Shown: one piece after another, positions 17,141 through 57,917 of the stretch
Layout of the letters: each line of letters opens with the position of its first letter
Position numbering within the stretch: the stretch's first letter is position 1
Assembly: GCA_021819135.1 (NCBI GenBank)
Contig: JAKASE010000001.1
Span: 75,375 to 139,374 of the forward strand
DNA from: Thermoplasmata archaeon
GTDB taxonomy: Archaea > Thermoplasmatota > Thermoplasmata > Lutacidiplasmatales > UBA184
Direction of reading: 5' to 3'
Length of the DNA stretch: 64,000 bases
Position numbers and translations under genes: made by a program
The notes under the pieces: model-generated
Database searches by the model: none
What the model was told of the DNA's origin: nothing
The model's input: the letters and a program-made list of their open reading frames with translations, nothing else

Positions 17141-19983
<2,843 letters not shown>

Positions 19984-19987
<4 letters not shown>

Positions 19988-29763: not shown

Positions 29764-29891
29764 CGTGCCGAACTGGCCAGTTCCGGTACGCCCGCCTGGC
29801 ATATGAACCCAAAGTCGGGGCGCCGCCGCCGCGGGCGGCGAGGCGCGGCGAAACCGAACCGGGACGCGGTCGGAGGGGGAAGCGCGCTACG

Positions 29892-30563: not shown

Positions 30564-31894
30564 TCTCACCTACGGGAGTCCGCGGCGTACGTCCCTGGCT
30601 TCTCTTCGCTGCCGTGCTCGCGGTCGGGCAGTCGGTCTACTTCGCGACCCCCACGCTCACTCCCGAGGTCGCCCGAGCGGTCAGTCTCGCCGTCCCGCTC
30701 AGCGCGCTCGCGCTCTTCTTCCTGTTCGTCCGGTGGGACGGGAGTACGCCGCGCGACCACGGGCTCTTCCTGCCCCCCGACCCGGCCCGGGCCCTCGGCG
30801 TCGCCGCGCTGCTGGTCGGGGTCTACCTCATCGCCGTCCTCGAACCCGGGTTCGGCTTCGGGTTCCTGGCGGGGGCCGAGGACACCGTGGACAGCGTCCT
30901 CTACTGGATCGCGTACGCTCCGCTCACCGCCCTGGCCGGCGAGGCGGTCTTCCGAGGGTATCTGCTCGATCGCTGGCTCAAGCCGGGCACCCTACCGGCG
31001 TCGCTCGGGGTCTCCTCGGTGCTCTTCGCGGTCGCCGGGACGAACGTGGTCGTCCTCGAAGGGCTCGAGCCGGTCTCGTTGGGACGACTGCTGCTCAGCC
31101 GCGTTGCCCCGCTCGTCGTCCTCGGCGTCGTGCTCGGCTTCTACTACCTCTGCGCCGCGAGGAACCTGCTCGGGCCGTTCGTCCTCCGTACCGGGATCCT
31201 CCTCTTCGTGGGACTCTCGCCGCTCCTCGCCGGCTCGCCCGGCTGGCAGCTCTCCCTGCTCCTCGAGCTGTTCGCCTACGGTCTCGTCCTCGCGCTCCTG
31301 CTCGTCCTGTACCGACCGTCGCGCTTCCTCGCCCGCGCCTATCTCGGGGAGAGGTTCGGTCCCCGCCGGGGACGGTTCCGGGAGATCCGGGAGCGTCGGA
31401 GAGAGCGTCGGTCCCTGGTCGTCGCGAGCGTGGCCGTCGCGCTCGTGCTGTCGGGGACGTTCGTCACCCTCGTGACGACCCTCGGGACCAATCCCCCGTT
31501 CCTCGCCATCTCGAGCGATAGCATGAGCCCGACGATCCACCGGGGGGACATCGTTCTCGTCCGGCAGGCCGACGCCGCGTCGATCGGCGTCGGAACGGTG
31601 ATCGCCTACTCCTCCTCCTGCATGCCCTCCCCGGTAGTACATCGTGTCGTGGCCGAGAGCCCGGGAACCGGCGGCCCAGTGTACACGACGAGGGGGGATG
31701 CGAACGGGGTGAACGATCCGTGTCCCGTGCCGATCGGCGCCGTCATCGGGCAGATCGTTCTGGTCGTTCCCCTCCTCGGTTTCTTCGCCCTCTCGCCGGC
31801 GTTGTCGGTCGGAACGGTGGTGATCGCGGTCGTCGCCGTCGCCCTGCTCCGGCCCTCGTCGTCGTCGTTCTCCCATCGGAGGTGGCATCGATGA
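30560..31894 (+). CDS. fusion protein: polytopic membrane domain (degenerate CPBP/Abi-like EAVFRG motif) + C-terminal type I signal peptidase (SipW/Sec11, S26B type)
   Basis: ~8 TM helices then TM anchor and SDSMSPTIHRGD (Ser box), VVHRVV (His box), TRGDANGVND (GDNN box). Confidence 0.75.
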   Translation: MISPTGVRGVRPWLLFAAVLAVGQSVYFATPTLTPEVARAVSLAVPLSALALFFLFVRWDGSTPRDHGLFLPPDPARALGVAALLVGVYLIAVLEPGFGFGFLAGAEDTVDSVLYWIAYAPLTALAGEAVFRGYLLDRWLKPGTLPASLGVSSVLFAVAGTNVVVLEGLEPVSLGRLLLSRVAPLVVLGVVLGFYYLCAARNLLGPFVLRTGILLFVGLSPLLAGSPGWQLSLLLELFAYGLVLALLLVLYRPSRFLARAYLGERFGPRRGRFREIRERRRERRSLVVASVAVALVLSGTFVTLVTTLGTNPPFLAISSDSMSPTIHRGDIVLVRQADAASIGVGTVIAYSSSCMPSPVVHRVVAESPGTGGPVYTTRGDANGVNDPCPVPIGAVIGQIVLVVPLLGFFALSPALSVGTVVIAVVAVALLRPSSSSFSHRRWHR

Positions 31895-33189
31895 AAGGTC
31901 CGATCGCAGGGGTGGCGGTGCTGATCGTGCTGGCCGCGTGCGCCGGGTACTGGATCGCGTACGACGAGTCCCACGCCTCCCAGACCCCGGTCTCCACCAC
32001 GTTCCAGTACGAGGAGACGGGGGTCTACTCGTACGTGGCCGAGCTGAAGAACAACTCGCTCTACGGACCGGTCAACCTGACGAACCCCAACGCGACCCTC
32101 TTCTACGGGATCACCTCGTGGCTTCACGTCACGTACGTCTACCACATCACGCTCGACCGGGTCGTGAACACGACCGTGAACGCCGAGGTGCCGGTGGTCC
32201 TGGAGAGCTCGGTCTGGTCGAAACCGCTCGGGGCACAGAACGCGACGTTCGCGGCGACCGGCGCGAGAGGGGCGACCCTCGCGGTCACCTACGACCTCAA
32301 CGTGACGTCGGTCGTCTCCTTGGTCTCGTCGATCGTGAACGACACCGGCTACCAGCCGGATGCCTTCGCCGTCCGGTTCAGCCCGACGGTGACGACCTCC
32401 GTGGACACGGGGGGCACGGTGGCTCCGGTAGAGTTCGCCTCCACGCTCGCGTTGAACTTCACCTCCCAGCAGATCGTGCCGAGCGCGCTCCTTTCCTCCG
32501 CTCGGGGGGCCCACACGATCCTTGGAAGCCCGACCGGCGGAGTGCCGGGGATCTGGGGGAACGCCTACCTTCCGATCGGGATCCTGGTCGCGAGCCTCGG
32601 GGCCGCCGGCTATCTCGGGCTCCGTCCGTCCGGCGGATCCGATCGCCACCCCCGATCCCGTCTCGAAGCCGACCTGCGGGCCTACCGGGACGAGATCGCG
32701 GAAACCGATACTCCCCCGCCGCGCCAGCCGTCGGTCGAGGTCCGGTCGTGGGCCGACCTGGTGAAAGTGGCCGACACCCTCGGGCGGCCGATCCTACGGC
32801 TGGCCGACGCGACCGGCGGGGCACGGGAGGGATCGGTCTTCTACGTCCTCGCGGATTCCGTGGCCTACGTCTACCGGATCGAGGAAGCGGACCGGCCCGG
32901 GGAACCGACCGGACTCCGGGGCCCATCTCGCGACGCCCCCGGTCCGGCGGGATCCGTCGACATCCGGGCCGCCGTCGGCGAAGGGGACCGATCGCTCGGA
33001 CGGTTCGTTCGGGAAGTGAGCGACGTCAGCGAACGCCTGCGGACGAGCGGGGTCGGGGGCGAGCCTCGGAGAGAGGTGGACGCGCTCCTCCTTCGCGCGA
33101 TCGCTCGGGCCCGGCAAGGGCATCTGGACAGCGCGGAGCGGCTCCTTCGCGAAGCGGCCGAGCGAGCGGGTCGGACCGACCTCCGATAG
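31891..33189 (+). CDS. membrane-anchored N-glycosylated protein with SipW-cognate-like signal peptide (TapA-like accessory/fibre subunit candidate)
   Basis: ATG overlaps upstream stop (ATGA); N-terminal GVAVLIVLAACAGYWIAYDE resembles GGTWAAFND-type SipW-cognate signal; >10 sequons; second TM near residue 250 and cytoplasmic tail. Confidence 0.6.
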   Translation: MKGPIAGVAVLIVLAACAGYWIAYDESHASQTPVSTTFQYEETGVYSYVAELKNNSLYGPVNLTNPNATLFYGITSWLHVTYVYHITLDRVVNTTVNAEVPVVLESSVWSKPLGAQNATFAATGARGATLAVTYDLNVTSVVSLVSSIVNDTGYQPDAFAVRFSPTVTTSVDTGGTVAPVEFASTLALNFTSQQIVPSALLSSARGAHTILGSPTGGVPGIWGNAYLPIGILVASLGAAGYLGLRPSGGSDRHPRSRLEADLRAYRDEIAETDTPPPRQPSVEVRSWADLVKVADTLGRPILRLADATGGAREGSVFYVLADSVAYVYRIEEADRPGEPTGLRGPSRDAPGPAGSVDIRAAVGEGDRSLGRFVREVSDVSERLRTSGVGGEPRREVDALLLRAIARARQGHLDSAERLLREAAERAGRTDLR

Positions 33190-33336
33190 CTCCGGGGCGG
33201 AGCCCGGGGCCCCGACGCGGTGCCCGGATCATAGGATTCCCGGGTTTGCTCTGGAGCAGTGGGCTCGGACCTTCGCAGTCGGCTTGCCATCGCCCGCCCA
33301 TGCCCGGTACGAGGTGAAAGGCCTCAGGCTGAGAAA

Positions 33337-33876
33337 ATGTCGGGCAAGTGGGTTGTGGGACTGGTCGGAGTGTTCGTCGTGCTGGGCGTCGCGGGGGTCG
33401 GATTCGCGGCCTTCACGGACCCGTTGACCATCAATGGGAGCGCCACGGCAGGTACCTTGGACGTGCATATCGTGGACTACAGCAACAACGTCGCCTACCC
33501 GGGACACACGTACCTCACGCATCTCAGCGGTGACAAGAAGTCGATCGACCTCTATGCGTGGAACCTGGTTCCGGGCCAGTACCCGAACGAGCAGGTGAAG
33601 CTGAAGAACGTCGGCACGCTCCCGGCGCACATCGCCGTCACGCTCGTCAACAGCGACGGGAACCTCGTGGCCATGGGCGGCGCCGATGCCTTCGATGTCC
33701 AGACCACCTCGGGGCTCACCGCGGTGGGAGGTGTCTGGAGCGTCACACACTGGGTGACCCTCTACCCGGGCCACTCGATCTGGGACACGATCTACGTCGG
33801 GATCCCGGCGGGATCGACGTCCGCACCGGCGAGCACGACCTTCACGATCGTGTACACCGCGACCGCGGGCACCTGA
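33337..33876 (+). CDS. TasA/camelysin-like (peptidase M73 fold) secreted protein with SipW-cognate class signal peptide
   Basis: Signal VVGLVGVFVVLGVAGVGFAAFTD (G-x-G-F-A-A-F-T-D); GTLDVHIV...NLVPGQYPNEQVKLKNVGTLPAHIAVTLV parallels TasA GTLDL...NLKPGD...F.NNGSL. Confidence 0.7.
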   Translation: MSGKWVVGLVGVFVVLGVAGVGFAAFTDPLTINGSATAGTLDVHIVDYSNNVAYPGHTYLTHLSGDKKSIDLYAWNLVPGQYPNEQVKLKNVGTLPAHIAVTLVNSDGNLVAMGGADAFDVQTTSGLTAVGGVWSVTHWVTLYPGHSIWDTIYVGIPAGSTSAPASTTFTIVYTATAGT

Positions 33877-34208
33877 GCACCGAGAGACGCCTGCGAGTCG
33901 CAGCGCCGGTCGAAACCCTTTCCGGGCGGGCCGGTGGGGACCCCCACTCCCACCGACCCGCCTCCCGTATCCTTCGCGGTCTCTCCGAAGGGCAGGACTT
34001 TTCCCCCGAGACCCCACCGGATCGTGCGCTCCTGGAGCGCCGCCGGACCTCCGTACCGGTCGGCGGCCGAAGGGCCCGGGGGGTAGCGGCGGATCCCGAC
34101 CCGCTCCGCGGAAGATCCAGGACCGGGCTCTCGACACATGCCTCCGGAGGCCGACCCACTTCTCCGTACGCTCCGAGCCCGTTCGGGCCGTCCGGACGTC
34201 GAAGCGAC

Positions 34209-35018
34209 CTAGGCCGGCAGCCCGCCGTCGATCGGTACCCCGGTCCCGAACATCCCGATCGCCGATCCGAGGGCGACGAGCCAGGACAGCGGCGGGAGAT
34301 GGAGGCTACCGGGCCAGACCTCGGGGAACCGCTTCCGCTTGTCGCCCGAGCGTCCGACCGGTGCCCGCGCCGCCCCCGCATCATGGGACAATGGCCGGTG
34401 AGCAGAGCGCGAGAGGGACCCGGCAGCGAATGTCGGTGCCGACGCGTAGGCGGAGCCCGACGGAATGCTCGGGATCGGCGCCCGTGACGCGGTAGGAGGA
34501 AGACGGACCCTTGCGCCCTCGACCAAGGCGCCCGCGGGTTCTGGCGGGGCCTTCAAAGCGACGACCCACCGATGCCACCGCCCTTCCGCGGACCGGCCTT
34601 CGGCATCCCGGACGGAGAGCGCGGTCAGATCCTCCACGGCGGTGGCGAGCTCCGTTCGACGCTGGATCACGAGGTTCGCCGCGTTGAGCCAATCCTTGCC
34701 CCGGTCCGTAGCGCGGAACCCTATCGCGGTCCGCCGGAGCAGGCCCTGTTGCAGGGCCACTCCGGAGTAGCGAGAGAACGAGTCTTCGTTGAGGTTGGCC
34801 CGCCCGATGAGGCGGCCTTTCCGCATCTCCGACACCGCGGCGGCCACGAGGTCTCGGAGAACCTCGACCTTCGTTCGATACCGCCGACTACCGGTGCTCG
34901 TGGTCGTCCCCCCTCGGCCCGGGGCAAGCGTTCTCCCGGCGCCGGTGAAGGGCGCACGCGCTCCGATAAACGCATAGTGGCACGGAATTGACCTACCGGC
35001 CCGGTTCGCGCGCCTCAC
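34209..35018 (-). CDS. HTH_45-type winged-helix protein paralogue with C-terminal extension ending in a hydrophobic segment (start uncertain: GTG 35018 or ATG 35210)
   Basis: RRYRTKVEVLRDLVAAAVSEMRKGRLIGRANLNEDSFSRYSGVALQQGLL paralogous to 29892-30563 including the conserved TT.TG.RR.YR pre-helix segment. Confidence 0.5.
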   Translation of the reverse strand: MRRANRAGRSIPCHYAFIGARAPFTGAGRTLAPGRGGTTTSTGSRRYRTKVEVLRDLVAAAVSEMRKGRLIGRANLNEDSFSRYSGVALQQGLLRRTAIGFRATDRGKDWLNAANLVIQRRTELATAVEDLTALSVRDAEGRSAEGRWHRWVVALKAPPEPAGALVEGARVRLPPTASRAPIPSIPSGSAYASAPTFAAGSLSRSAHRPLSHDAGAARAPVGRSGDKRKRFPEVWPGSLHLPPLSWLVALGSAIGMFGTGVPIDGGLPA

Positions 35019-35382
35019 GACCGGCGGCGAAGGGTTGGGGCTCGCAAACCCCGTTCGACATGTAGGTCCCGCGCTCTTCCCACTCCCGAGCTCGAGCCGA
35101 TAAGGGCGACCGGGTCGGTCCTCTCTCGGGCGCGCAGAGGGACTTCCTCTGGCGACCGGCTCGGTGGTGTGCCCCTTGACCCGCGAGTTCCAGCAAGGGT
35201 CGGAGGCCATTCCACCGGGACCAAGGCCGGACTCGGGGCTCGGCAGGGCATTCGTCTGAGTTGGCTCGAACGAGGCGTGGGATCACCCTCTCGACCGGCG
35301 GGTCCGAAGAGGGAGCTGCGGCCGTCCTCGAGTGGGCGGGTAGCCCAAACTTATGAAGAACGGGGCATCCGCCCAGACGGTT

Positions 35383-35455
35383 GCCACTGTAGCTCAGTCG
35401 GCAGAGCGGCTGATTCGTAATCAGCAGGTCGGGGGTTCAAGTCCCTCCAGTGGCT
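35383..35455 (+). tRNA. tRNA-Thr (CGU)
   Basis: 73-nt cloverleaf: acceptor GCCACTG/CAGTGGC, D-arm GCTCAGTCGGCAGAGC, anticodon loop TTCGTAA, T-arm GGGGGTTCAAGTCCCTC; TATA-like CTTATGA ~30 nt upstream. Confidence 0.85.
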
Positions 35456-35499
35456 TTGGTCCAAGGGTTCATATCCGTTGACAGCCCTCCCTCGAAGCG

Positions 35500-36742
35500 A
35501 TGGGTCAATCCCCGGTCGAACCGGCCGCCGACAATCGCCGGTTCGACATCCACGACACGCACGCCCAGATCGCCCACGCGGAGGCCCGACTGCGCTCAGG
35601 GGACTCGGGGGTCCCACCCGAGACCGCTCAGGCGATCCTCGAGTTCGTTGAGGCTCGTAGAGAAGCCGTCTCCGCGCAGAGGACGGTGACCTACCTTCGC
35701 GAATCTCCAGGCGGCCTCGAAGAGACTCGGCCGGGACCTTCTGGAACCGAACCGGGAGACGCCCGCGAAGTTCCTGCGGGCCTACCGCGAGAAGGAGGTC
35801 TGGACCAAGCTCACTGTGCGCTCCGTCCTCTACTCATTCTGGAAGTGGCGGTTCAATCGTGATGGGAAGGACTTCCCCCGCTGGCTCAAGATACCGCTCT
35901 CTGCGCGAGGGGCGAGCCGGAAAGACCACAACGATGTGTTGACCCCGGAGGAGGTCGCACGCATCGCCGATCACACAGTCAACCTCCGCGACAAGGCTCT
36001 GATCTGGGTCCTCTACGAGAGCGGAGGACGGATCGGCGAGGTGCTGACCCTGCGAATCGGCGACGTGGAGAGAACCGAATACGGGGCGGTCCGCCTCTAC
36101 TTTCCGACGGGAAAGACCGGTCGACGAACTGTCCCCCTCTTTGAAGCCGCGGTGCCGAACCTTCTCCTCTGGCTCAAGAACCATCCCCGAGCCAGCGACA
36201 GGGACGCTCCCCTCTGGGTCCAGATCGAGCAGGCGAACCCGAGCGGAAGTGGAATCGGCTACCGCTACGTCGTCAAGTTGCTCGAGCGAGCGGCGGCCCG
36301 CGCCGGCGTGGCGAAGCCGGTGAATCCGCACAGCTTCCGGCATTCCCGAGCCACGGCTGTGGCACAGAATCCCCAAGTCTCGACCTCGGTGCTCGAGAAG
36401 TTCTTCGGTTGGCAGCCGGGTTCGTCGATGGCGAAGACGTACGTTCACCTGTCGGGCAAGGAAGTCGAGGACGCCCTTGCCCGAGCCCACGGGATCGACC
36501 TCGGCAGATCGGAAACTCCGATGTCGAAGCTCCCGCGTGTGTGCGCCCGCTGCTCTACCTCAAACGACCCTGACGGGAAGTTCTGCGTCCAGTGCGGTGG
36601 TCCGCTCAGTCTTGAAGGCGTGGAGGAGCGGGCGAAGTGGAAGGCCGAGGAAGATGCGCTTGCCAACCTTCTTGACGACCCGAAGGTCCGCTCATTCATC
36701 GCGCGCCGGCTGAGGGTACATCTCGGCCGTGCAGAGGCGTAA
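35500..36742 (+). CDS. tyrosine recombinase/integrase, apparent +1 frameshift near 35690-35700 (N-terminal domain in frame of 35500, catalytic domain in frame of 35816)
   Basis: Catalytic boxes GGRIGEV (Arg), HSFRHSRAT (His-x-x-Arg), KTYVHL (Tyr); C-terminal zinc ribbon CARC...CVQCG; frame-2 reading open from 35690 encodes genuine-looking FLRAYREKEVWTKL segment lacking any start codon. Confidence 0.75.
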
Positions 36743-36912
36743 CGGTCTGCTCCCCCGGACGGGTCGCGATCTTGGGTCCGTTCCCATTCGAGCCGCAAGG
36801 GTTGCAATCAGTCTCGGAAGGGGGCATTAGGAAACCCTGCTCTCCGCAAAGGATCCGGCAGCGCTCTAGGGTGGGGGGGTTCTACAAGGTGCCCCTTTTG
36901 TGAGCATCGCCT

Positions 36913-37515
36913 GTGGCCCTAGTTCTTGCGATGAGTCGAGGAACACAAGGTGGAGGCTCGAAGACGGCGCCTTCGAGTGTGAGACTACTCGATTGGCTCG
37001 AAGGGTTCGGACCGGAGCAGGCGCGTGTGGTCGACGTACGACGGATTCTCGGCATCCTGTCAGGGGAGGATTTCACGTCTGATTGGCGTATACTCCCTTC
37101 GCTCTACCGCACAGACCGGAAGAAGTATCTCTTTCACAAGCGCAGGATTGACAGATTGCTTCGGGGCTCGCCCTCATCGGTCAACGCGAAGCGACCCTGG
37201 ACGCCTCGAAGGGCCGTACTTGGCGGTCCAGTGAACAGACTCCCGGAGTTCACCGAGGTCAACGGCTTCTTCTGGAACGACAACGACGGAAATCACCGAG
37301 TCGTCGTGGCAAAACGGAAGTGCTACCTCAGGATGAAGGGACTAGTTACTCGCGGCCGGTTCAAGCCCGAAACTCCCCCTCCGCTTCTCCAATGGGTAGC
37401 GAGTATCGAAGCTCAGGCAGAGGCACCGAGAGCGTCGAGTCGTGCGCGGTGGCCAGCTCCGCACATCGCTCCTCTATTGCCGCGTCGGTATCGTCTGCGC
37501 AAGACGACCCCTTAA
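36913..37515 (+). CDS. hypothetical protein (island cargo)
   Basis: 200-aa ORF in lower-GC island with A/T-ending codons atypical of host; no family recognised. Confidence 0.35.
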   Translation: MALVLAMSRGTQGGGSKTAPSSVRLLDWLEGFGPEQARVVDVRRILGILSGEDFTSDWRILPSLYRTDRKKYLFHKRRIDRLLRGSPSSVNAKRPWTPRRAVLGGPVNRLPEFTEVNGFFWNDNDGNHRVVVAKRKCYLRMKGLVTRGRFKPETPPPLLQWVASIEAQAEAPRASSRARWPAPHIAPLLPRRYRLRKTTP

Positions 37516-37594
37516 TCGCGACGGCCCCCACGTCACCCCCGCGTGCACAAATCTCACTCTTCGACTGGCGACCGCCTCCGTGGGCCAAAGTATC

Positions 37595-37942
37595 ATGGCT
37601 CATTTCGGAGTCCACCAGCTGATGCGAGCGCGAGTCGTCGCGGTGGGTGTTCTGATGATGATCGTCGGGGCACTTCTCTCTCTTCTCGCATTCCTGCTCG
37701 CATCCAATCGAAGCTCCTTGGATGGACTGCTACCCGATACAATGATTGCGTATGGTGGCGTCATAGGACTGATTGGATTCGTCCTCTTGATCGTCGGTTT
37801 AGTGGCGAAACGGAAGTCGGGCCAGGCCGTCCCCTCTGCGACGCCTGCGTCCTCGCGGTCTTGCCCTTCACGCGGCGTTGGCAACGCTAGCGCCGCTCTC
37901 TTCTGTCAGAAGTGCGGAAGGCCTCTGCCGCCACCCGCGTGA
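37595..37942 (+). CDS. small membrane protein with C-terminal zinc ribbon (island cargo)
   Basis: ATG 37595; two TM helices then CPSRG...CQKCG. Confidence 0.4.
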   Translation: MAHFGVHQLMRARVVAVGVLMMIVGALLSLLAFLLASNRSSLDGLLPDTMIAYGGVIGLIGFVLLIVGLVAKRKSGQAVPSATPASSRSCPSRGVGNASAALFCQKCGRPLPPPA

Positions 37943-38120
37943 GCATCAGTAGTACAGGCGACCCAGATCGGGATTTGAAAACGGACCGTTACGCCCAACC
38001 CATAGTCGAGGTCGGGTCACTCAATCAGAAGCCTTCAGATTGGTACCTAAGTCACTCAGCCCTCGCCAGCCCGAGGAGGAGCCTATAAACGACCATTGCG
38101 AGTCCACGAACCTTCGACCG

Positions 38121-38759
38121 ATGGCATCGTATGCCCTGCCGGTACCGAGGTTTTGGGTCATCGTACTGGTTCTCCTGCTTCTGGTCATCGTGCCCTCGAT
38201 CACCGGAGGGGTGACCATCGCAGAAGGTTACACGGCCGGCGGCGCCATTCTGGTCTTATTGGCGATAGCAATGCTCATCGGTGCAGTGTGGTGGGTGGAC
38301 TCTTCACACCGCAACGAGTTGGAAGCAGAGAAGGCCGCACACGCTCGAGTCCTCGAAGTCCAAGCAGCCGAAGCTCCGCGAAGATCGGAGCAGGAACAAC
38401 GACGATTAAGGCGTGAAGAGCTGCTCCGGCTCTCTCGACAGGACTTTCAGGATGCCGTCATCGGAATGTTGGGAGGAGTATCGAATCCGATCAAGGCTCG
38501 TGACTTTGGAGTTGACGGTCACCTATCCGATGGAACTCCGATCCAAGTGACGCAGAGCCCGAATGTACCGCGAAACAAGGTCGACCTGTTTCTTGCTGCC
38601 GTTCTCCGCGAGAAGCGGACTGCGGGGACTATGGTGGCGCTCTCATATTCCCAAGGTTCCTTGGACGAGGCGGAGCGGTTAGCGAGGGAACAAGGAGTGA
38701 ACCTGACTCTCCGTACGCTCGACGAGATTCTCGGGCTCTCTTCCCGTGACGTCTGCTGA
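38121..38759 (+). CDS. membrane-anchored PD-(D/E)XK restriction-endonuclease-like (Mrr_cat) domain protein
   Basis: Two N-terminal TM helices, coiled-coil linker, C-terminal FQDAVIGML...DFGVDGH...IQVTQS...NKVD resembling Mrr catalytic domain. Confidence 0.55.
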   Translation: MASYALPVPRFWVIVLVLLLLVIVPSITGGVTIAEGYTAGGAILVLLAIAMLIGAVWWVDSSHRNELEAEKAAHARVLEVQAAEAPRRSEQEQRRLRREELLRLSRQDFQDAVIGMLGGVSNPIKARDFGVDGHLSDGTPIQVTQSPNVPRNKVDLFLAAVLREKRTAGTMVALSYSQGSLDEAERLAREQGVNLTLRTLDEILGLSSRDVC

Positions 38760-38854
38760 GGGGACGCGGATCCAACGACCCCCGTCATCCGTAACCCACC
38801 CCTTAATCACCCAACGTCCCATCCACCCATGCCGCAGAGTGATGGGCAGGCTAT

Positions 38855-39172
38855 ATGCCAACGAGAAAGGACACTGAGAGAGAACCCCCGAGCGAGAAGG
38901 AATACGTGCTCATCCCAAGACATGCAGGGGTGAGGCTCCGGATGACCCAGCTACCCGGCGAGCCCGAGCCGAGCCCTCAGGTGTTTACATGCCCGACGTG
39001 CCCTGCTGACCAACGATTGGTCATGGTGTCCCTTGAAACGGTGAACCTGCGGAACAAGCTTCGACTCCGAAAGCAGGGCAAGAAGGTCGAAGAACTCCAT
39101 CTTATCCTCTCCCTGAATCGAAGACAGGCAGAACAACTCCTCGCGGGGTTTCGTGAAACCGCGCAGCCCTAG
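38855..39172 (+). CDS. hypothetical protein (island cargo)
   Basis: 105-aa ORF, CPTCP motif; low-GC codon usage. Confidence 0.3.
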   Translation: MPTRKDTEREPPSEKEYVLIPRHAGVRLRMTQLPGEPEPSPQVFTCPTCPADQRLVMVSLETVNLRNKLRLRKQGKKVEELHLILSLNRRQAEQLLAGFRETAQP

Positions 39173-39251
39173 AACCGGTCCGAGCTGAAGCTATTCAACT
39201 TGGAGGTTCGGCTGAGGGAATACAGAGGCGCAGAGTCATGGAGGAATCAGC

Positions 39252-39695
39252 TTGCCATTCACATACGGAAGCAAGACGGAGAACAATCTGATTAGTCAAG
39301 CCTTCGACGGCCGTCGGGGGTTTAAAGCTGAGGACAGCGATTCGGATTCGATCATGGAGGACCACGGAGGAACCTGTCCCGAATGCGCGCGCCTTTTCGG
39401 AGAGGATGCCGCCTTCGTGCCCCTGTCTGTCGCCAGGTGGGTCAAACGACACTGCCTTGAGATGAACTTCGTTCACGACGACCGTGAACTCGATGTGCTG
39501 GCGCAGTTGGAGTGGGACGAGGATCTGCAGCGGCAGATGCCCGCGCGTACTCGGCGCGAATTCAGAGCGTGGCGAGAGAAACGCAGTCAAGGGACACACC
39601 CACCTATCGAGCTCGGAAAGGGGATTTTGACGGCTCCCCACCGGACACCTCCGTGCCGTTTCCACGGACGTTCTTTCCGGGTTGGCGGCGTCTAG
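39252..39695 (+). CDS. hypothetical protein (island cargo)
   Basis: 147-aa ORF with CPEC...HC motif; no family recognised. Confidence 0.3.
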   Translation: MPFTYGSKTENNLISQAFDGRRGFKAEDSDSDSIMEDHGGTCPECARLFGEDAAFVPLSVARWVKRHCLEMNFVHDDRELDVLAQLEWDEDLQRQMPARTRREFRAWREKRSQGTHPPIELGKGILTAPHRTPPCRFHGRSFRVGGV

Positions 39696-39705
39696 TTAGC
39701 TCCCC

Positions 39706-40440
39706 ATGCTGAAGGAGAATATGTTCACACCCATGCCGAATCGACGGTGGGGAGATGTCCTGAGGGACAAGTGGTTGGAGGCTATGCGGAACGAAGCGAA
39801 CAGTCGCGGTTGGGCTTTCACGGAAGAGGGGCCGGTAAACAACCGTAAGGACAACACGGCGTTCACCTTGAACACCGCCCCCGCCGCTGACTCAGACCCG
39901 TCCTCGGTAGAAACACCGAACGGTGTCTCTCACATCGTGTGCGGGGTTCTCCACGCCACTTACTCATTGGACCGTTGGGCGGTCTCCCGGAAGATTCTGG
40001 CAGACTTGGACAGCCACTCCAAACTAACCGGGGACAGGTACGTCGCCGTCCTTCTCTATAAGGCTCACGACGTTGGCTGTGTCCTATACCCCAAGGACAT
40101 CCAATCTCGGACTCAAGGGACGCCGATCGAGGGGACGATGGATATTGTGAGAGATGACCTCGATGGTCTGACTTGGTTTGATACGATGCCGTACTGCGCG
40201 GACTGCCTTGTACTCTCAACACCACCACCGGGTTCGTTGACCCTTTCGGGTCTGGATATAGAAGTTCCTCCCTCCCGCCCAATAGACCGTCGTCTCGCCA
40301 AGGAACAGGTGAGGCACGACCAGTTCTGTCCTCATGGCCAAGTGCTCCTTCTCAAGTCACGGGAGAAGGGGGTGAAGGCTGCAGGTGATGGTTGCTGGGT
40401 CGGCGGAGAGCACCCGGACGCTGGAGGTAATACACAGTGA
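39706..40440 (+). CDS. hypothetical protein (island cargo)
   Basis: 244-aa ORF; no family recognised. Confidence 0.35.
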   Translation: MLKENMFTPMPNRRWGDVLRDKWLEAMRNEANSRGWAFTEEGPVNNRKDNTAFTLNTAPAADSDPSSVETPNGVSHIVCGVLHATYSLDRWAVSRKILADLDSHSKLTGDRYVAVLLYKAHDVGCVLYPKDIQSRTQGTPIEGTMDIVRDDLDGLTWFDTMPYCADCLVLSTPPPGSLTLSGLDIEVPPSRPIDRRLAKEQVRHDQFCPHGQVLLLKSREKGVKAAGDGCWVGGEHPDAGGNTQ

Positions 40441-40865
40441 CAGGCTCGGACTCGTTACGAGAGTCCACGGCGGGATTCTATGGACGCGTTGGGAGCGAAG
40501 TCCCCCTATCGGAAGCGTCGCGTGACCGCCGTCTTCAACCCTGGAGTCGTGAACGAAAGGCTGAGACCCGGCTCGGCATGAATCCGAAGCTCCGGCTCGC
40601 TTCTGGCGATTTCTGGTTCTCCGCAGCTAAGTTTAAGATGCACCCGTTGACTGCGCGTTTGGATGACAGGGTCGCGTCGATTTCTCGCCATCGAGCGCGC
40701 GTTCCTGTCGTGTGTGACCGATTGGGCGACCCCGGGTTCGCCATCGGCCGCGGTCCACCGGAGCAGGCATGGACCCAAACGAGAACCCGGAGCCTTCGGA
40801 CAGCCGAGGTAGCGACCGTCCACGTGTGTGCTTCCGCCCACCGGGCGGCCCCGTGGGTAGATTGA
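40437..40865 (+). CDS. hypothetical protein (island cargo)
   Basis: ATGA overlap with upstream ORF; 142 aa. Confidence 0.25.
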   Translation: MTGSDSLRESTAGFYGRVGSEVPLSEASRDRRLQPWSRERKAETRLGMNPKLRLASGDFWFSAAKFKMHPLTARLDDRVASISRHRARVPVVCDRLGDPGFAIGRGPPEQAWTQTRTRSLRTAEVATVHVCASAHRAAPWVD

Positions 40866-41005
40866 ATGACGACCGGAGACTGGGAGGGGCAGATCGTTCT
40901 TGCCCTTCCAGTACGTCGAGCTCCTCCGTCCAGATCCGGGCTACGAGGCCGTCGGTAGGCGGTGTGGGGCTCCGACGGTCTCCCTCGATCGGGCGCCGCC
41001 GGCGC

Positions 41006-41251
41006 ATGCGGTGGTTTACGGTTTCGGTGTCCGTAGTTGCCGTTCTCATCCTCCTATCCTCATCGATCGGATTGATTCGCGCCGCTGGGAGCGGGGGCGC
41101 CTTCCCCGCCGGGATCGTGGGTTCCGCCACTCCGTACTATCCGTTGCTGGTCCCTCCGTCGATGTGGCCGTCACCGGACACTGCCGTGCCGTCCACGTCC
41201 GGGGTCAACCTGTCACTTCCGCAACTAGTGGGCGTTTCCAGAAGTTCCTAG
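41006..41251 (+). CDS. possible small secreted/membrane peptide (81 aa)
   Basis: MRWFTVSVSVVAVLILLSSSIGLIRA signal-like N-terminus. Confidence 0.25.
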   Translation: MRWFTVSVSVVAVLILLSSSIGLIRAAGSGGAFPAGIVGSATPYYPLLVPPSMWPSPDTAVPSTSGVNLSLPQLVGVSRSS

Positions 41252-41268
41252 CCTAGCACGCGGGCCTG

Positions 41269-42032
41269 CTACCACCCGTCTACTTCGGGATCGTAGTCAT
41301 CGAGGCGCTCGAACCCTTTCACTCCGAGGATCGACAGCGCCGAGGGGGAGTCGAGGACCATTTGCCGTATGGTTCCGAGCAGATCCTTCTTCTCCCGTTT
41401 CTCGAGATCCTTCAGCACCTTGTCCAGATCCACGAACGACCGTGGCTTACGCTTGTACGTCTCGAGGAGCGCCGCCACATGCTTGCAGGGGTAGTATTCG
41501 GACGGACACGTGCACTGGGCCTCCTTCTTCCGTCCGGCCGAGGCTTGGGTCCGGTACACGCCGGAGTTCCCTTGGATTCGGCAGACCAAGGTCGACCCGA
41601 CCTTCATCCGTTCCCGCATCCGTGGGGAGTCCACATACTCGTCCACCCGGTCCTCCCACGAACGCCCCATTGCCGGGCTCACTGGAGGTAGGCGAGGCCC
41701 GCGCAATCGAAGCACTCCTCCGGAGTGCCTCCCATCGACCCGCTCGGAAGATACGAGCGCTCGTAGCGCTCCGTGCTGTACTTGTAGAACGCGAAACCCC
41801 ACACGTCCGGCCGCCCGGCATACTCGAGCCGACAGAGGTGGGTCGGAACACTCTCCACCTTCCCCGGCGAATCCTCGTCATAGCAGTAGGCATCCACCTG
41901 GGCGTACCGCCCTCGGAAGCGAACCTCCACCCGAGCGCATCGCTCCCTCCATCGCTGCTGGGCGCGAGCCCGAAGCCGCCCGGTCAACTCCCGCCGCAGC
42001 TTCGGAGGGATTCCCTCCGTCGACCTCTTCAT
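41269..42032 (-). pseudogene. SWIM zinc-finger protein, apparently frameshifted (frames 42032->41679 and 41802->41269)
   Basis: CTCPSEYYPCKHVAALL SWIM signature (CxCx(n)CxH) in downstream frame; upstream frame starts ATG 42032 overlapping IS630 transposase stop (ATGA). Confidence 0.5.
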
Positions 42033-43171
42033 CCCTTCTCCTCGCGATGCAGGGGTTCCGGGTTCTTGGACTCTTCCTCGGACCATCGCTTCAGGTCCGC
42101 TCGAAGGTCCTCCCGCGTGTACGTCCATCGGAAGGGCCGTGGATGTCGATTCCATCGAGCGAGGAACCCACGGATCCTCGCCTCCGCTTCCTCCCGATTC
42201 CGGAAATCTCTCGGTGTCAGTGCCTTCTTCGTCAGGATCGCCAAGAACAGCTCCTCCTGGTCGACCCAGCTCGCGTGCACCGGGGTGTGCACGGCCTGCG
42301 CTTGGGGGAACGCCCCTTTCAGCCATGGCCCGAAGCTCTTCGGATGATGGGCGCTCCCGTTGTCGATCACCCAGAACACCCGAGAGGCCGTGGCGTAGGG
42401 TTCCTTCTCCATCACCTCAGTGACGAAGGCACGAAACGACTCCGCGGTGTTTCGAGGGGGGAGCCCCCCGAACACATCCCCGTGTCGAACGTCGAGCGCT
42501 CCCTGGAAGCAGAGGGTTCCCTTGCGCGTGTATTCGAACTCCACCTTGCCGCGTTCCTTCGGCCGAGGGGCGCGGGTGGCCACCTTCCGCTGAAGGATCT
42601 GGACCCCGGTCTTCTCATCGGCACAGATCACTTGGTCCTGGGGCCCCAACGGCCGACCGTTCCACTGGCCTTCGTAGAGATCGAGGATCGGACCGGCTCT
42701 TTCGAGGAAGTCCGGAGCCCTCTTGTGGATCCACGTGCGATAGAACCACGGTCGAATCCCATCCTGGTGAAGGACCCGCCACAGGGTGGTCCGGCTGGGA
42801 AGCGGCCGGAGCCGTTCCTTCCGAAGGACGGAATGGATCTCGGAGAGGGAGAAGCGGCTGAGCGGTAGGCCCCGCTCGGCGGGCAACTCGCAGGCGATCG
42901 CCTTGAGGGTCGCCAAGGTGCGGGCCGGGAACTGACGAGGTCGGCCGGAGCGAGGTCGGTCCGCCAAGGCCGCCAGTCGGTCACGGACGAAGCGCTTCCG
43001 CCAAGTCTTGACGGTCTGGAGAGCGCAGCCCAGAGTTCGGGCGATCTCGTGGTTCGAAGTGCCCTCCGCGGCCAGAAGGGCGATCCGCGCACGCAAGACC
43101 TCGCGAAACGGAGCAGAGGTCCGACGAAGGCTGGCCTCGAGCCTTGAGCGCTCGCTTTCCGAGAGCACCAC
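42029..43171 (-). CDS. IS630 family (Tc1/mariner-like) DDE transposase
   Basis: 380 aa; N-terminal HTH, DDE region (ICADEKTG..., VIDNGSAHH...) typical of IS630; GTG start. Confidence 0.85.
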   Translation of the reverse strand: MVLSESERSRLEASLRRTSAPFREVLRARIALLAAEGTSNHEIARTLGCALQTVKTWRKRFVRDRLAALADRPRSGRPRQFPARTLATLKAIACELPAERGLPLSRFSLSEIHSVLRKERLRPLPSRTTLWRVLHQDGIRPWFYRTWIHKRAPDFLERAGPILDLYEGQWNGRPLGPQDQVICADEKTGVQILQRKVATRAPRPKERGKVEFEYTRKGTLCFQGALDVRHGDVFGGLPPRNTAESFRAFVTEVMEKEPYATASRVFWVIDNGSAHHPKSFGPWLKGAFPQAQAVHTPVHASWVDQEELFLAILTKKALTPRDFRNREEAEARIRGFLARWNRHPRPFRWTYTREDLRADLKRWSEEESKNPEPLHREEKG

Positions 43172-43440: not shown

Positions 43441-45171
43441 GTGGCTCATACCATCTACACGGCATCCGGGAACTGTTCTTCGACGGCCATCGCCGCCGCT
43501 CCGGACGGTTCGTCGGTTGTGGCCGGGATCACGTGCGGCTCCACGTCCCGGGTGTTTCGTTCCACCCCGACGAATGCACTGACGTCATGGACTGCCCTTG
43601 GGACCCTTTCAGGAACCGGGCTCGAGCTCACCATCGACCCGGCGGGTTACGCTGCGGCCACGACGATCTCGGGTGGAGACGCCGTGCAGAGCGTGTTGCC
43701 GTTCCCGACCGGGCCCGTGACGTCGACCACCCTGGGACCGGCGAGCGCGGCCCGCCCGGTGATCCTTCGTACCGCCGAAGGAGCGGTTCAGGGAGCGGTC
43801 ACCGTTGACCCCGGAAGCTGGACCACGTTCTGGGCCACAACGGAGACCGGGCTCTCACCTATCGCCTACGGGATCTTCCGATTGCCTCAGAGCAACGCGT
43901 CCCCGGTGTTCAACGCGATCGGGTCGACCCAGCTCAGTGAACCCGGGGGGTATGCCAACCAGCTGTCGGTGGCGGTCGTGGGCGACACTCTCGTCGTCCT
44001 GACCACGGTCCAGGAGAACGGGACCATGGAAGCCGCGATCTCGGCCTCGGGAACCCAGGGGGAGACGTGGAACAGCCCGATCATCCTCCCGCTGACGATG
44101 GGCTCGATCATCGACCCCGAGATCTACGGCGGTCAAGATGGGAACATCTATGCCACCTGGTTGGCGAGCGACGGCGGCAATCTCTCCGCGATCGAGCAAG
44201 CCGTCCTCGCGCCGGACGGTCGGCTGCTCTCCGACCCGACCGTCATCCCCGGAGGGATTGGCCCGTGGCCGGTGAGTAACGTCGAAGTTGTGGGTTCAGC
44301 CCTCGATTCGTTCGAGCGTCCCCTGCTGGTGTGGGCAACGCCGGTCGGATCGAACGGGAACGCCCTGATCGAGACGGGCGCGTTCCCGTCTCCATCGAAC
44401 ATCGTCGGTCTCGAGCGAGACGCCCTGTGGAATCTCACCAGCGCGGACCTCGTCGGCTCGGGGAACGTGGCGACCTATGTGAGCGGCATGTCCGGGATCC
44501 TCACGAGCATCGCGAGCGATGCCGGGCGAGCAGGTTCGGGAGGATACTTCAACCTGGCCCGGAATCTCACCGCAGACCTATACCAGAACGACAGTCTCTC
44601 TTCCCTGGGCTACTTCGGCGAGCAGTCCTCGGGCAGCGGGAGTGGCAAGAAGTACACTCTCGCCGGAGGGGCGGACCTGACTCCCGCGGTAGAGACGGGT
44701 CCGGGATACTCCCCACCCGAGACGTATGGTGCCCTCGTTCCTTCGGTCGGCTTCGGTTCCGCCGCCACGTACTTGAGTGTCGAGACGGATTGGTTGCTGG
44801 CCTCCGAAGGTGTGGTCCCGGTGGCGGCTTCGAATCCGCTGAACAACGTCAGTCTGCCCCAAAGCCTGTCTTCATTGCCCGGATACGGGACGCCCGCCTA
44901 TCCGCACAACACGGTGGATGGGAAGCTCAGCTCCGCCACGGTCACCCCGAGTGTCATCAATCCGACCACGGCCGAGCTCGGGATCACCGGGTCCTTCCCC
45001 ACCTATCAGTACCAAACGACCACCGGCACGACGACCTGCGGGAGCACCCACTACCCCCTCCGAACCGATTCCTACACCGACACGCCATCGACCTTCTCGG
45101 ACACGGCCTTCGTCAACAACATGGTCACCGCGCTGGGAACCATTAGCAACCTGAACGGCGCAGCCTCATAG
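43441..45171 (+). CDS. Ser/Thr/Gly-rich sequon-dense surface protein (576 aa) with Asp-box-like motif, no signal peptide in-frame
   Basis: SGTQGETWNS Asp-box-like; many N-x-S/T; GTG start right after IS630; upstream in-frame sequence contains hydrophobic FFLVYAATYLV but no start codon. Confidence 0.5.
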   Translation: MAHTIYTASGNCSSTAIAAAPDGSSVVAGITCGSTSRVFRSTPTNALTSWTALGTLSGTGLELTIDPAGYAAATTISGGDAVQSVLPFPTGPVTSTTLGPASAARPVILRTAEGAVQGAVTVDPGSWTTFWATTETGLSPIAYGIFRLPQSNASPVFNAIGSTQLSEPGGYANQLSVAVVGDTLVVLTTVQENGTMEAAISASGTQGETWNSPIILPLTMGSIIDPEIYGGQDGNIYATWLASDGGNLSAIEQAVLAPDGRLLSDPTVIPGGIGPWPVSNVEVVGSALDSFERPLLVWATPVGSNGNALIETGAFPSPSNIVGLERDALWNLTSADLVGSGNVATYVSGMSGILTSIASDAGRAGSGGYFNLARNLTADLYQNDSLSSLGYFGEQSSGSGSGKKYTLAGGADLTPAVETGPGYSPPETYGALVPSVGFGSAATYLSVETDWLLASEGVVPVAASNPLNNVSLPQSLSSLPGYGTPAYPHNTVDGKLSSATVTPSVINPTTAELGITGSFPTYQYQTTTGTTTCGSTHYPLRTDSYTDTPSTFSDTAFVNNMVTALGTISNLNGAAS

Positions 45172-45174
45172 TAC

Positions 45175-46997
45175 CTACATCTGGCTGACCGCCGCCTTGC
45201 TCGCGCTCTCCAACCGGCTTACCGGCGAGGGAAACCTCGCCGGTAGCCTCCCCTGGACCGATCCGGCTAAATAGGTGTGGGTCTTACGTATGACCCACAT
45301 GGCGGTCAAGCACAACCGCGGCTCGGGCCGCTGTTACCTCTCCCAGTGGCGCACCTACCGCCGAGACGGCAAAGTCGTCAGCGAGTACGTCCGCTACCTC
45401 GGCCTCTGCCCCGAGCACAATGCCGGTCCCTCCACCTCCGTCCTCGACCGCACGGTCCACGGCTCTTCCTATCGGGCGGGAGCGGTCCGACTGCTCTGGA
45501 GCCTCGCCGACGATTTGCAGTTCCGGGCCTCCATCGACCGGATCTGCGGCCGAGATTCCGACCCTTCCGAGCCCTCTCCGGGCCAAACCCTGACGGCCTG
45601 GGCCATCAACCGGGTCCTCGATCCCGCCAGCGCCACCCGCCTCGAACTGTGGACGCCCACCACCGACCTACCTCTCCTCGCTGGGGTCTCGGCGGACGCC
45701 TGGGCGAAGGACACCTTCTTGCGCGCCCTCGACCGGATCTGCTACGACGACCCGGCGCTCGCCCAGGTGGTCGACCACACCGCCGAACTCGAGGAGACGC
45801 TGAGCGCCGGGTGGCGGGAGCGCCACCCGCTCCTGAAGGGGACGAAGGAGGTGATGGCCTACGACCTGACGAACGTGCTGTTCTTCGGCGTCACCTGCCC
45901 GATCGCCACTCCGGGTAGGAACCCCGATCACCAGAATCGGCTCCAAGTGAACGTCGGCGCCGTGGTGAGCCGTCACGACCGGATGCTCTGGCGGCACTTC
46001 GTCTACCGGGGGAACCGGCACGGCGTGGGAACGATGCGGAACCTCTTGGTGGAGCTCCAGCGGGCCCAAGTGGCCCCCGGATTGCTCATCGTGGACCGAG
46101 GCCTCGTGGGCCGGGAGATCGTCGAGGAGGTTCGGGCGGTCGGCTGGCAGCTGCTTGGGGGGCTCTCGCGGAGTTCGAAGGAGGTTCGGGAGATCCTCGA
46201 CACGGCGAAGCTGCGAGAGAACCCCTCGACGTTCGTTCAGAAGACCCGAACGGGGGCGATCTACGCCGCGAAGGTCCGGGCGAGGCTCTGGAAGTCGGAG
46301 CAGGAGGTGGTGCTCTACACGAACGCGGAGCACGCGATGGACGATCGGGTGGAACGGGACCGTGCGCTCTCGATGATCGGGAAGGTGCTCGACACGCTCT
46401 CGGAGAAGGGGAAGGACTGGTCGGAAGGGAAGCTCCACGAGGCGATCGAGGGCGTGCTCGGGGAATCGGCGGAGTTCGTGAACGTCCGGGTGCGTCGGGG
46501 CGGGGCCACGCCGAGAGTGGCGTGGTCCTTTCGGGATCGGGCGGTGAAGGCGGCGGCCCGGCGGGACGGGAAGTACGTGCTGCTCTGCACGGACCCGGGG
46601 CTGTCGGCGGCGGAGGTGGTGGAGCAGTATCTGGGGAAGGACTTCGTGGAGAAGGCGTTCCGGACGTTCAAGTCGGGGATCGAGGTGGAGCCGGTGCGGC
46701 ACCGTCGGGAGCGGCGGGTACGGGCCTACCTGTTCGTGTGTGGGCTCGCGTATCGACTGGAGATGGCGCTTCGGTGGAAGCTCCTGGAGGGCGGTGTGAA
46801 GCCGGAGGACGTAGCGGAGTACCAGGAGCGGCTGCTGGAGGAGCTCGGACGCGTGGAACGAACCGAGGTCCGGCTGGGAGCTCAGGCCCGAACGTGGTAT
46901 CTGAATGTCACGGACCGCGTCCGGGAGGGGTTGAGGCGCCTCAAGCAGACCGGGTTGCTCCAAGAAGGGCCCGTCGCGACCGCGGTACCGGCGTAGG
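45175..46997 (+). mobile_element. IS1634-family insertion sequence with 9-bp target-site duplication TCATAGTAC
   Basis: Direct repeats at 45166-45174 and 46998-47006 flank a 1.8-kb segment carrying a single transposase gene. Confidence 0.65.
45290..46996 (+). CDS. IS1634 family (IS4 superfamily) DDE transposase
   Basis: MAVKHNRGSGRCYLSQWRTYRRDGKVVSEYVRYLG N-terminus and C-terminal YLGKDFVEKAFRTFKSGIEV (Y-x2-R-x3-E-x6-K) signature. Confidence 0.85.
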   Translation: MTHMAVKHNRGSGRCYLSQWRTYRRDGKVVSEYVRYLGLCPEHNAGPSTSVLDRTVHGSSYRAGAVRLLWSLADDLQFRASIDRICGRDSDPSEPSPGQTLTAWAINRVLDPASATRLELWTPTTDLPLLAGVSADAWAKDTFLRALDRICYDDPALAQVVDHTAELEETLSAGWRERHPLLKGTKEVMAYDLTNVLFFGVTCPIATPGRNPDHQNRLQVNVGAVVSRHDRMLWRHFVYRGNRHGVGTMRNLLVELQRAQVAPGLLIVDRGLVGREIVEEVRAVGWQLLGGLSRSSKEVREILDTAKLRENPSTFVQKTRTGAIYAAKVRARLWKSEQEVVLYTNAEHAMDDRVERDRALSMIGKVLDTLSEKGKDWSEGKLHEAIEGVLGESAEFVNVRVRRGGATPRVAWSFRDRAVKAAARRDGKYVLLCTDPGLSAAEVVEQYLGKDFVEKAFRTFKSGIEVEPVRHRRERRVRAYLFVCGLAYRLEMALRWKLLEGGVKPEDVAEYQERLLEELGRVERTEVRLGAQARTWYLNVTDRVREGLRRLKQTGLLQEGPVATAVPA

Positions 46998-47008
46998 TCA
47001 TAGTACGA

Positions 47009-57809: not shown

Positions 57810-57917
57810 GTCGACCTCGATCTTGGACCCCGAAGTCCGAGCGTGAGGTACGGTAGGTCGGTCTCGGGAAGGGGGCCCAGGGCCCCGCGGCGATTGCCTT
57901 TTGGAGCCATCAGGTCT

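Follow-up and report, generated by a model that had tools for sequence, protein, structure and literature searches.

A 64,000-nucleotide (nt) stretch of DNA from an uncultured soil Thermoplasmata archaeon, here called the window, was analysed around its tRNA-Thr(CGU) gene. The locus at 35383–41260, where a first-pass annotation had placed an integrative element with a cargo of lower G+C content, most probably made up the leftmost ~6 kb of one integrated mobile element of ~31.3 kb. The element is a degraded cryptic integrated element of a kind already known from other archaea. Its ends comprised the target tRNA gene, a tyrosine integrase and two copies of a short attachment (att) repeat, as follows (coordinates beyond 64,000 are window-equivalent).

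35383–35455, + strand: tRNA-Thr(CGU), the proposed integration target, intact (ARAGORN; Rfam tRNA, 71 bits)
35443–35456, + strand: attL core CCCTCCAGTGGCTT, the final 13 nt of tRNA-Thr plus one (repeat comparison)
35463–35476, + strand: AAGGGTTCATATCC, an invariant motif in the spacer from the tRNA to the integrase ATG (alignment)
35500–36742, + strand: tyrosine integrase with a C-terminal CxxC..CxxC zinc ribbon, frameshifted (Pfam Phage_integrase)
66733–66746, + strand, ~2.7 kb beyond the window end: attR candidate CCCTCCAGTGGCTT (intergenic repeat)

The DNA to the right of the window was reached by an exact look-up of the open reading frame (ORF) of a group II intron reverse transcriptase (RT), which returned the NCBI contig DAIFDS010000079.1 (GCA_027377435.1). 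This contig showed 2 mismatches to the window in 12,227 overlapping bases and supplied sequence to position 72952. The attR candidate on it was identical to attL at 14 of 14 positions, and at 19 of 22 when the comparison was extended. Apart from attL, it was the sole copy of the tRNA 3' end within 37 kb, and no third copy of the core was present in the 73 kb examined. The 50 nt after the candidate aligned with the 50 nt directly after tRNA-Thr in a related locus, L011 (JAKACD010000002.1), with a score of 17. As a control, 10,401 real 50-mers of the same sequence peaked at 16, none reaching 17, and at 80 nt the observed score was attained by 0.0006 of the controls. L011 showed ~80% nucleotide identity in its host genes and had no integrase in its 131 nt downstream of the tRNA. 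On this sequence evidence, attL and attR are taken to bound an element of ~31.3 kb (35443–66746).

The first-pass annotation had found no attR, which held true for the window itself; since the candidate lies past the window end, the missing site was an artefact of the window limit. The search with the tRNA 3' half that it had proposed, carried out with a pattern search and a repeat finder, detected no second copy with up to 3 mismatches in the 64 kb. None of the 11-mers of 35383–35520 recurred on the + strand of the window. A second, degenerate att site was also sought at 66.8–72.9 kb and inside the element, and no convincing one was seen. The att repeats of integrated elements in Thaumarchaeota were 8–25 bp long, with a median of 17 (Krupovic et al. 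2019, PMC6563490), a range that includes the 14 bp of the present core.

The integrase adjoined the tRNA gene as previously described; its ATG, at 35500, began at the 45th base past the tRNA. The C-terminal ORF scored 77.8 bits for Phage_integrase (PF00589; cut-off 27.1, E = 1.1e-21). Assignment to the tyrosine integrases was correct; the gene was not a single ORF as had been assumed but two in different frames, 35500–35862 (120 amino acids, aa) and 35816–36742, and no intact reading frame was present in this copy. A three-frame translation placed the frame change near 35700, and a DNA alignment with three intact homologous loci reduced the defect to a single extra C at 35694, which the annotation had missed. 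The reconstructed protein of 413 aa was 93% identical to P0001 over 100% of its length and 83% identical to P0002 and P0003 over the whole length, all three being intact and 413 aa long. It kept all of the catalytic residues Arg177, Lys205, His277, Arg280, Trp304, and Tyr314, which were invariant or nearly so in 12 homologues, and the four cysteines of the CxxC..CxxC ribbon. Retention of these residues implies that the inactivation was recent or that the extra base is a sequencing error; the copy may thus be a pseudogene or may carry such an error.

Archaeal integrases of the pNOB8 type are non-partitioning, whereas those of the SSV type are partitioning, with the att site inside the ORF and the gene split by integration. 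In the present locus the integrase coding sequence was contiguous beside attL, and the att repeat was located in the tRNA, 44 nt upstream of the integrase ATG and outside the ORF. The gene therefore resembled the pNOB8 type, whole beside attL with the att core in the tRNA, a likeness of arrangement only. The motif AAGGGTTCATATCC was unchanged in the window and in the related loci L019, L025, and L027, although the spacer around it differed. It may act as a TATA-like promoter of a leaderless integrase mRNA or as an integrase arm site.

Relatives of the integrase were consistently linked to the same tRNA. Every relative with context examined (69–93% identical) adjoined tRNA-Thr(CGU). In L025 and L027 an integrase with 69–70% identity was located directly 3' of tRNA-Thr(CGU), and both loci shared with the window a host synteny of UvrA, UvrC, proteasome, FolD, LonB, a Cys/Met-metabolism enzyme, and tRNA-Thr. 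The cargo behind their integrases consisted of a D5_N/DUF5906 helicase, a resolvase, a methylase, and MazE-like genes. L026 was a second copy of the L025 element on a contig that ended just upstream of the tRNA, so that the host context was not shown. In L025–L027, the 10 kb around the integrase contained no att repeat; a match of L025 to an 11-mer of the tRNA (12888) was dismissed as chance on inspection. The divergence of the integrase paralleled that of the host genes (~72% and 74–79% nucleotide identity, respectively). More distant homologues, at ~35% identity, were present in Nitrososphaeria.

The 73-nt tRNA-Thr(CGU) gene was identical in 18 species-representative metagenome-assembled genomes, all labelled Thermoplasmata archaeon. 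Their upstream housekeeping genes matched the window at 20–29 kb with 71–84% nucleotide identity. None of the 18 loci carried this integrase, and no ORF downstream of their tRNA had a homologue anywhere in the window. The comparison with related genomes that had been suggested as a check therefore favoured an integrative element at tRNA-Thr: the window's downstream gene order was found at none of the 18 loci, which lacked both integrase and cargo, and the related integrases adjoined the same tRNA. Among themselves, the 18 relatives shared downstream genes at offsets of ~+0.2 to +4.3 kb from the tRNA, and several had insertions of 3–4 kb at the tRNA-Thr site. The variable offsets of these common genes mark tRNA-Thr(CGU) as a recurrent insertion hotspot.

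The composition of the locus differed from that of the host DNA. The host DNA at 1–29110 had a G+C content of 0.708, and its 4.5-kb windows gave 0.709 ± 0.012 with a minimum of 0.684. The ~4.5 kb of cargo at 36743–41260 had a G+C content of 0.596 and a tetranucleotide distance to the host of about three times the background, which upheld the reported lower-G+C cargo and excluded a uniform composition. The proposed extent, 35383–41260, did not survive. The sharpest trough lay at 36.7–41.3 kb, and every 4-kb block from 36 to 72 kb was atypical (0.60–0.68). Low G+C content (0.58–0.68), orphan genes and mobile DNA ran past 41260 to the window end and further. The low-G+C, non-syntenic DNA continued for ~31 kb, of which the annotated stretch formed the left fifth.

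The right part of the element contained a putative replication module interrupted by a group II intron.

57810–60748, no strand: repeat-rich stretch with no convincing gene, beside the 3' end of the primase gene
60749–61171, − strand: displaced C-terminal ~140 codons of the primase-helicase (blastx)
61172–63036, + strand: group II intron, antisense to the primase-helicase (Pfam, Rfam, ends)
63037–64000, continuing to 65460, − strand: Prim-Pol/D5_N/DUF5906 primase-helicase (Pfam DUF5906, 1.3e-13)

The gene call of 847 aa at 62917–65460 (− strand) contained Prim-Pol, D5_N, and DUF5906 domains and a Walker A motif, and matched the PHROG DNA primase family at 3.6e-62. This domain order, with the Walker A motif, is that of the P4-family phage/plasmid primase-helicases found in archaeal as well as bacterial mobile elements (Kazlauskas et al. 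2018, PMC5862659), from which the present gene differed by an antisense group II intron after codon 808. When an uninterrupted homologue (P0272, on L035) was compared with the locus, it aligned to 64443–63037 and then straight on to 61171–60774; by blastx, 60749–61171 was 59.6% identical to its residues 736–874. L035 was contiguous across the site, and its positions 4026/4027 bracketed the insertion exactly. Because P0272 and L035 are uninterrupted, the 1,865 bases at 61172–63036 are an insertion in the primase gene. This insertion contained an RT-maturase ORF at 61774–62952 (RVT_1, 2e-36; GIIM, 7e-14) and a domain V/VI at 62959–63036 (Rfam Intron_gpII, RF00029, 41.4 bits against a cut-off of 40), and its ends, 5' GTGCG and 3' ...AT, agreed with the expected GUGYG...AY. 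The uninterrupted homologue is proof of this intron insertion in the primase-helicase gene. As it lies antisense, the intron could not be removed from the primase transcript by splicing.

A homologue of the 67-aa ORF immediately upstream of the primase lay beside the helicase of L025, and the two helicases were 35% identical. These relationships indicate that the primase end and the integrase end belong to one kind of element. Three small ORFs were located between the primase-helicase and the attR candidate. The primase had one distant match, at 30% identity, in IMG/VR. The stretch of ~2.9 kb at 57810–60748 was dense in imperfect repeats, direct (16 families) and inverted (13 pairs), such as GCGCGCGAGCACYACGCGC and TTGACGGTTGACGGTT, with no Rfam match at E ≤ 1; from its repeats and position it is a possible replication origin. 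An NCBI-annotated 272-aa ORF within it looked spurious.

A primase-helicase with 53% identity was observed in L032/L033 (64–5775), in an element beside tRNA-Ile(GAU). The expected place of an integrase, next to this tRNA and ahead of the primase-helicase, was taken by a 464-aa ORF with no Pfam match, and genes for a type ISP restriction protein, a PLD-SNF2 protein, and an OLD-family protein followed. This context indicates that the replication module is common to elements with different tRNA targets and defence cargo.

These features can be combined in a model of integration. Recombination of a circular element with a tRNA-like attP core would take place at the 3' end of tRNA-Thr(CGU) on the chromosome, catalysed by the element's own non-partitioning tyrosine integrase. 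Integration would restore a complete tRNA gene at attL, directly adjoined by the integrase gene, and would leave the 14-bp partial tRNA copy CCCTCCAGTGGCTT as attR. The attP junction would then join 66.7 kb to 35.46 kb, and attB would join the tRNA to ...TCTCTTCTCGTCG. The free form would be replicated by the Prim-Pol/D5-type primase-helicase, which in the circle would be divergent from the integrase across attP and would lie beside the repeat-rich candidate origin.

Several observations weigh against a single element with these ends. The att repeat comprised only 14 bp, with a stand-alone chance probability of ~0.02 (first-order Markov simulations gave a match of at least 14 nt in 5 of 300 runs), and is moderate evidence by itself. 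The flank of L011 available for comparison was limited to 131 nt. The empty-site junction pattern had no match in the metagenomes of the Joint Genome Institute (JGI), and no excised or circular form was observed. On six short contigs (L019–L024), the tRNA and integrase were shared with the window at 90.7% nucleotide identity, and all similarity ceased 3 nt past the stop codon of the integrase, which may therefore not have been associated with the present cargo for long. The DNA after the attR candidate, 66747–71888 (L028 positions 14974–20115), also had a low G+C content of 0.627, so that the compositional boundary did not coincide with attR. Finally, DAIFDS010000079.1 started at 36151 and the Logan contig SRR13205814_2066 at 36395, both within the integrase gene.

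The DNA at 66747–71888 encoded a secreted protein of 151 aa and a surface protein of 833 aa with BNR repeats; the latter had no relative in an ortholog search. This segment could be an older island remnant or simply a set of compositionally odd surface-protein genes. Peptidase_S58 and P-type ATPase genes were likewise among those to the right of the attR candidate.

The explanation that competes best with a single element, although it is unlikely, is a composite island of unrelated elements accreted at the tRNA-Thr hotspot. The integrase remnant with the cargo at 36.9–41.3 kb would be one member and the primase-helicase element another, and the 14-bp repeat would be the outer att site of the array or of one of its members. 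Such an origin would suit the heterogeneous G+C content within the island (0.596 to 0.68), which is a further point against the single element, as well as the different cargo right after the stop codon of the nearest integrase relatives, the atypical DNA past attR, and the 3–4 kb insertions of several relatives at this site. The integrase and primase of the window were also 27 kb apart on opposite strands, whereas in related elements a distance of 2 kb separated helicase and integrase, both on one strand. In the circular form, however, the integrase and primase would be neighbours across attP. The small ORF and helicase on the primase side had relatives in an element whose integrase was 70% identical to that of the window. 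Moreover, the + strand from one end to the other held no internal att site (the 14-mer with up to 2 mismatches); the only such match on the − strand, at 46778, was within an insertion sequence (IS). A single element bounded by attL and attR is therefore preferred.

The central part of the element carried transposases and two large genes.

42029–43171, − strand: IS630-family transposase (HTH and DDE_3), a secondary insertion (Pfam HTH_32, HTH_29, DDE_3)
43441–45171, + strand: 576-aa Ser/Thr/Gly-rich putative surface protein (translation)
45174–46997, + strand: IS with a 573-aa DDE_Tnp_1 transposase and termini CCTAC/GTAGG (Pfam DDE_Tnp_1, weak)
47009–51064, + strand: 1351-aa putative glycoprotein with a hydrophobic C-terminal region, by eye (translation)
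52926–54602, − strand: second DDE_Tnp_1 (IS1634/IS4-like) transposase (Pfam, 4.6e-19)

The IS at 45174–46997 was flanked by an 8–9 bp target duplication, TCATAGTA(C), at 45166–45173 and 46998–47005. Its insertion point coincided exactly with the stop codon that ends the 576-aa gene and with a terminator-like palindrome, ahead of the 1351-aa gene. The possibility that the 576-aa and 1351-aa ORFs were a single gene split by the IS was rejected: the stop codon lies within the target duplication, and the two are therefore adjacent genes. The ends of the IS630 element were sought and could not be defined, and the second DDE_Tnp_1 transposase was 27% identical to the first. The arrangement of these sequences indicates secondary insertions and not truncations of the element.

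Both large proteins were rich in Ser, Thr, and Asn, with many N-x-S/T sequons, and neither had a Pfam, PADLOC, or PHROG match. Both may serve the element as surface or envelope proteins. No close relative of the integrase, of a 244-aa protein, or of the 1351-aa protein was found in IMG/VR. Virion hallmarks (capsid, portal, terminase) had no PHROG or Pfam match among the island ORFs, although novel virion proteins are possible. Likewise, no Pfam match to conjugation genes (VirB4/TraG-type ATPase, relaxase, mating-pore) was found among these ORFs. On the − strand at 51808–52802, overlapping ORFs gave weak matches to GIY-YIG (52434–52802) and to a DUF4365/PDC-type domain (51808–52491), and may represent a frameshifted nuclease gene.

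A more speculative reading, which is held to be rather improbable, regards the zinc-ribbon integrase at tRNA-Thr(CGU) as a long-lived anchor in soil Thermoplasmata that co-diverged with its host while entire cargo sets were exchanged behind it. The orphan cargo, including the 576-aa and 1351-aa pair, would then not be the remnant of a plasmid and could encode an undescribed pleomorphic virus or another new class of archaeal mobile element. This reading was drawn from the integrase divergence that tracked the host genes and from the loss of all similarity beyond 3 nt after the stop codon.

It is very improbable that the element was only ~5.9 kb long (35383–41260), with its right end and attR destroyed by an IS630 or IS1634 insertion, as the first-pass annotation had supposed. 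The G+C trough at 36.7–41.3 kb, the IS copies at 42.0–43.2, 45.2–47.0, and 52.9–54.6 kb, and the lack of an attR within the window would fit such a history. However, the DNA beyond the IS copies was still non-syntenic, low in G+C content and rich in orphans, and the sole IS with resolved ends (45174–46997) was a simple, clean insertion with a target duplication and intact genes on either side. A replication module typical of the integrase family at 60.7–65.5 kb and, beyond the window, the tRNA-end repeat with a native-like flank at 66.7 kb also disagreed with a truncation.

An assembly chimera, in which the host tRNA and the 5' part of the integrase were joined in silico to an unrelated contig through a common integrase segment, is just as improbable. 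Both independent contigs began inside the integrase gene, so that the join of the tRNA and the 5' part of this gene to the cargo depends on the assembly of the window itself; apart from these starts and the mismatches given above, they were identical to the window. The primase-helicase of 53% identity was on a Logan contig from the same run as the Logan cargo contig (SRR13205814), which indicates that related elements occur in one community. Co-occurring integrase variants may break assemblies inside this gene, as the contig starts suggest. However, the identity to L019 was even along the integrase gene, with no switch at the break points. The contig that carried the 3' part of the integrase and the cargo contained the tRNA-Thr 3'-end repeat 30.6 kb in, as a real insertion predicts, and the integrase family was always found beside tRNA-Thr(CGU). 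These three observations argue that the join is real.

The cargo next to the integrase consisted mainly of small ORFs.

36913–37515, + strand: 200-aa ORF of unknown function (gene call in an independent Logan assembly)
37622–37942, + strand: 106-aa protein with two hydrophobic segments, by eye, and a C-terminal C...CxxC (translation, gene call)
38121–38759, + strand: 212-aa Mrr_cat-like PD-(D/E)xK protein (homologues, AlphaFold model)
38855–39695: small ORFs of uncertain strand, 38942–39172 (+), and 39195–39641 (−) or 39252–39695 (+)
39721–40440, + strand: 239-aa ORF of unknown function (homologue P0316)
40437–41251, + strand: two overlapping ORFs of 142 and 132 aa, of unknown function (gene calls)
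41269–41670, − strand: SWIM zinc-finger protein (Pfam SWIM, 5.8e-9)

The 200-aa ORF had no Pfam, PHROG, or PADLOC match, and the small ORFs at 38855–39695 had no family matches. The 239-aa ORF at 39721–40440 and the 142-aa and 132-aa ORFs likewise had none in the Pfam and PHROG/PADLOC scans. One non-identical homologue of the 239-aa ORF, P0316, was found (50% identity, E = 3e-68), and the ORF is judged to be a real gene. The 106-aa protein had been described as a small membrane zinc-ribbon protein. Its hydrophobic segments and CxxC motif were seen again; it contained only three cysteines, and scans of Pfam and other libraries gave no family match.

The protein previously called a membrane-anchored Mrr-cat-like nuclease was composed of N-terminal hydrophobic helices (assigned without a transmembrane predictor), a long helix, and a C-terminal Mrr_cat-like domain. 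A HMMER search with a longer, 239-aa version of its ORF returned an identical 212-aa protein, which sets the true start of the gene at 38121. The C-terminal domain had 268 homologues at E ≤ 1e-3. Among the homologues scanned, 8 of 10 matched Mrr_cat (PF04471) at E ≤ 0.01, 7 of them above the 21-bit cut-off, and most of the matching proteins were fused to N6/N4 methyltransferases. The AlphaFold (AF2) model, with a predicted local distance difference test (pLDDT) score of 86.6, showed two N-terminal helices, a long helix, and an alpha/beta domain. Foldseek comparison of the model with the PDB gave weak matches (E ≥ 1.6e-3) to the Rpb5 N-domain, EcoT38I, FokI, N.BspD6I, and Can2, all of which we take to be PD-(D/E)xK folds; an alignment of the family against PDB sequences gave nothing relevant.

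The family motif DxGxDG...PxQVK aligned with the 212-aa protein, in which Asp128 and Asp132 were kept and the Lys, conserved in at least 90% of the homologues, was replaced by Thr. The protein itself had no Pfam match at E ≤ 0.01 and thus fell below the threshold of Mrr_cat. Whereas Mrr_cat domains are often fused to methyltransferases, the 212-aa protein had N-terminal hydrophobic helices instead and no methyltransferase nearby. The 'Mrr-like' part of the earlier description was supported by the homologues and is reasonable in view of the predicted fold, whereas nuclease activity is doubtful given the substituted Lys.

Upstream of the tRNA, a region of ~6.2 kb with a host-like G+C content of 0.70 (29111–35340) lay between the Cys/Met-metabolism gene and tRNA-Thr. 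It held a CAAX protease/S24 peptidase, a DUF5305 gene, and a winged helix-turn-helix gene. In eight related loci the Cys/Met-metabolism gene ended ~60 nt from the tRNA, and L010 (JAKAVQ010000005.1) had a shorter version of the region. The promoter context of the tRNA differed as well (AAACTTATG versus CATTATAG). By this comparison of sequences, the region arose by an insertion or rearrangement specific to this lineage.

The element resembled the cryptic integrated elements of Thaumarchaeota (Krupovic et al. 2019, PMC6563490) in its integration by a tyrosine recombinase at a tRNA 3' end, its short att repeats, its replication module of a PrimPol fused to a superfamily-3 helicase, and its mostly orphan cargo without capsid or conjugation genes. 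It differed from them in its Thermoplasmata host, in an integrase clade that conserves a C-terminal CxxC..CxxC zinc ribbon and has tRNA-Thr(CGU) as its site in every relative with context examined, and in the inactivation of this copy by a frameshift, an intron, and insertion sequences. The decay of this copy comprises the +1 frameshift of the integrase, the antisense intron in the primase-helicase, at least three insertion sequences, and the loss of the Lys in the Mrr-like protein. Current understanding of such elements is not challenged by the locus.

To our knowledge, the mobile elements of uncultured soil Thermoplasmata have barely been described. The present locus provides a worked example of such an element with defined ends, and ~31 kb of the contig should be annotated as decaying mobile DNA. 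Furthermore, tRNA-Thr(CGU) was identified as a recurrent integration hotspot in these archaea, and the zinc-ribbon integrase clade could be used for finding further elements.

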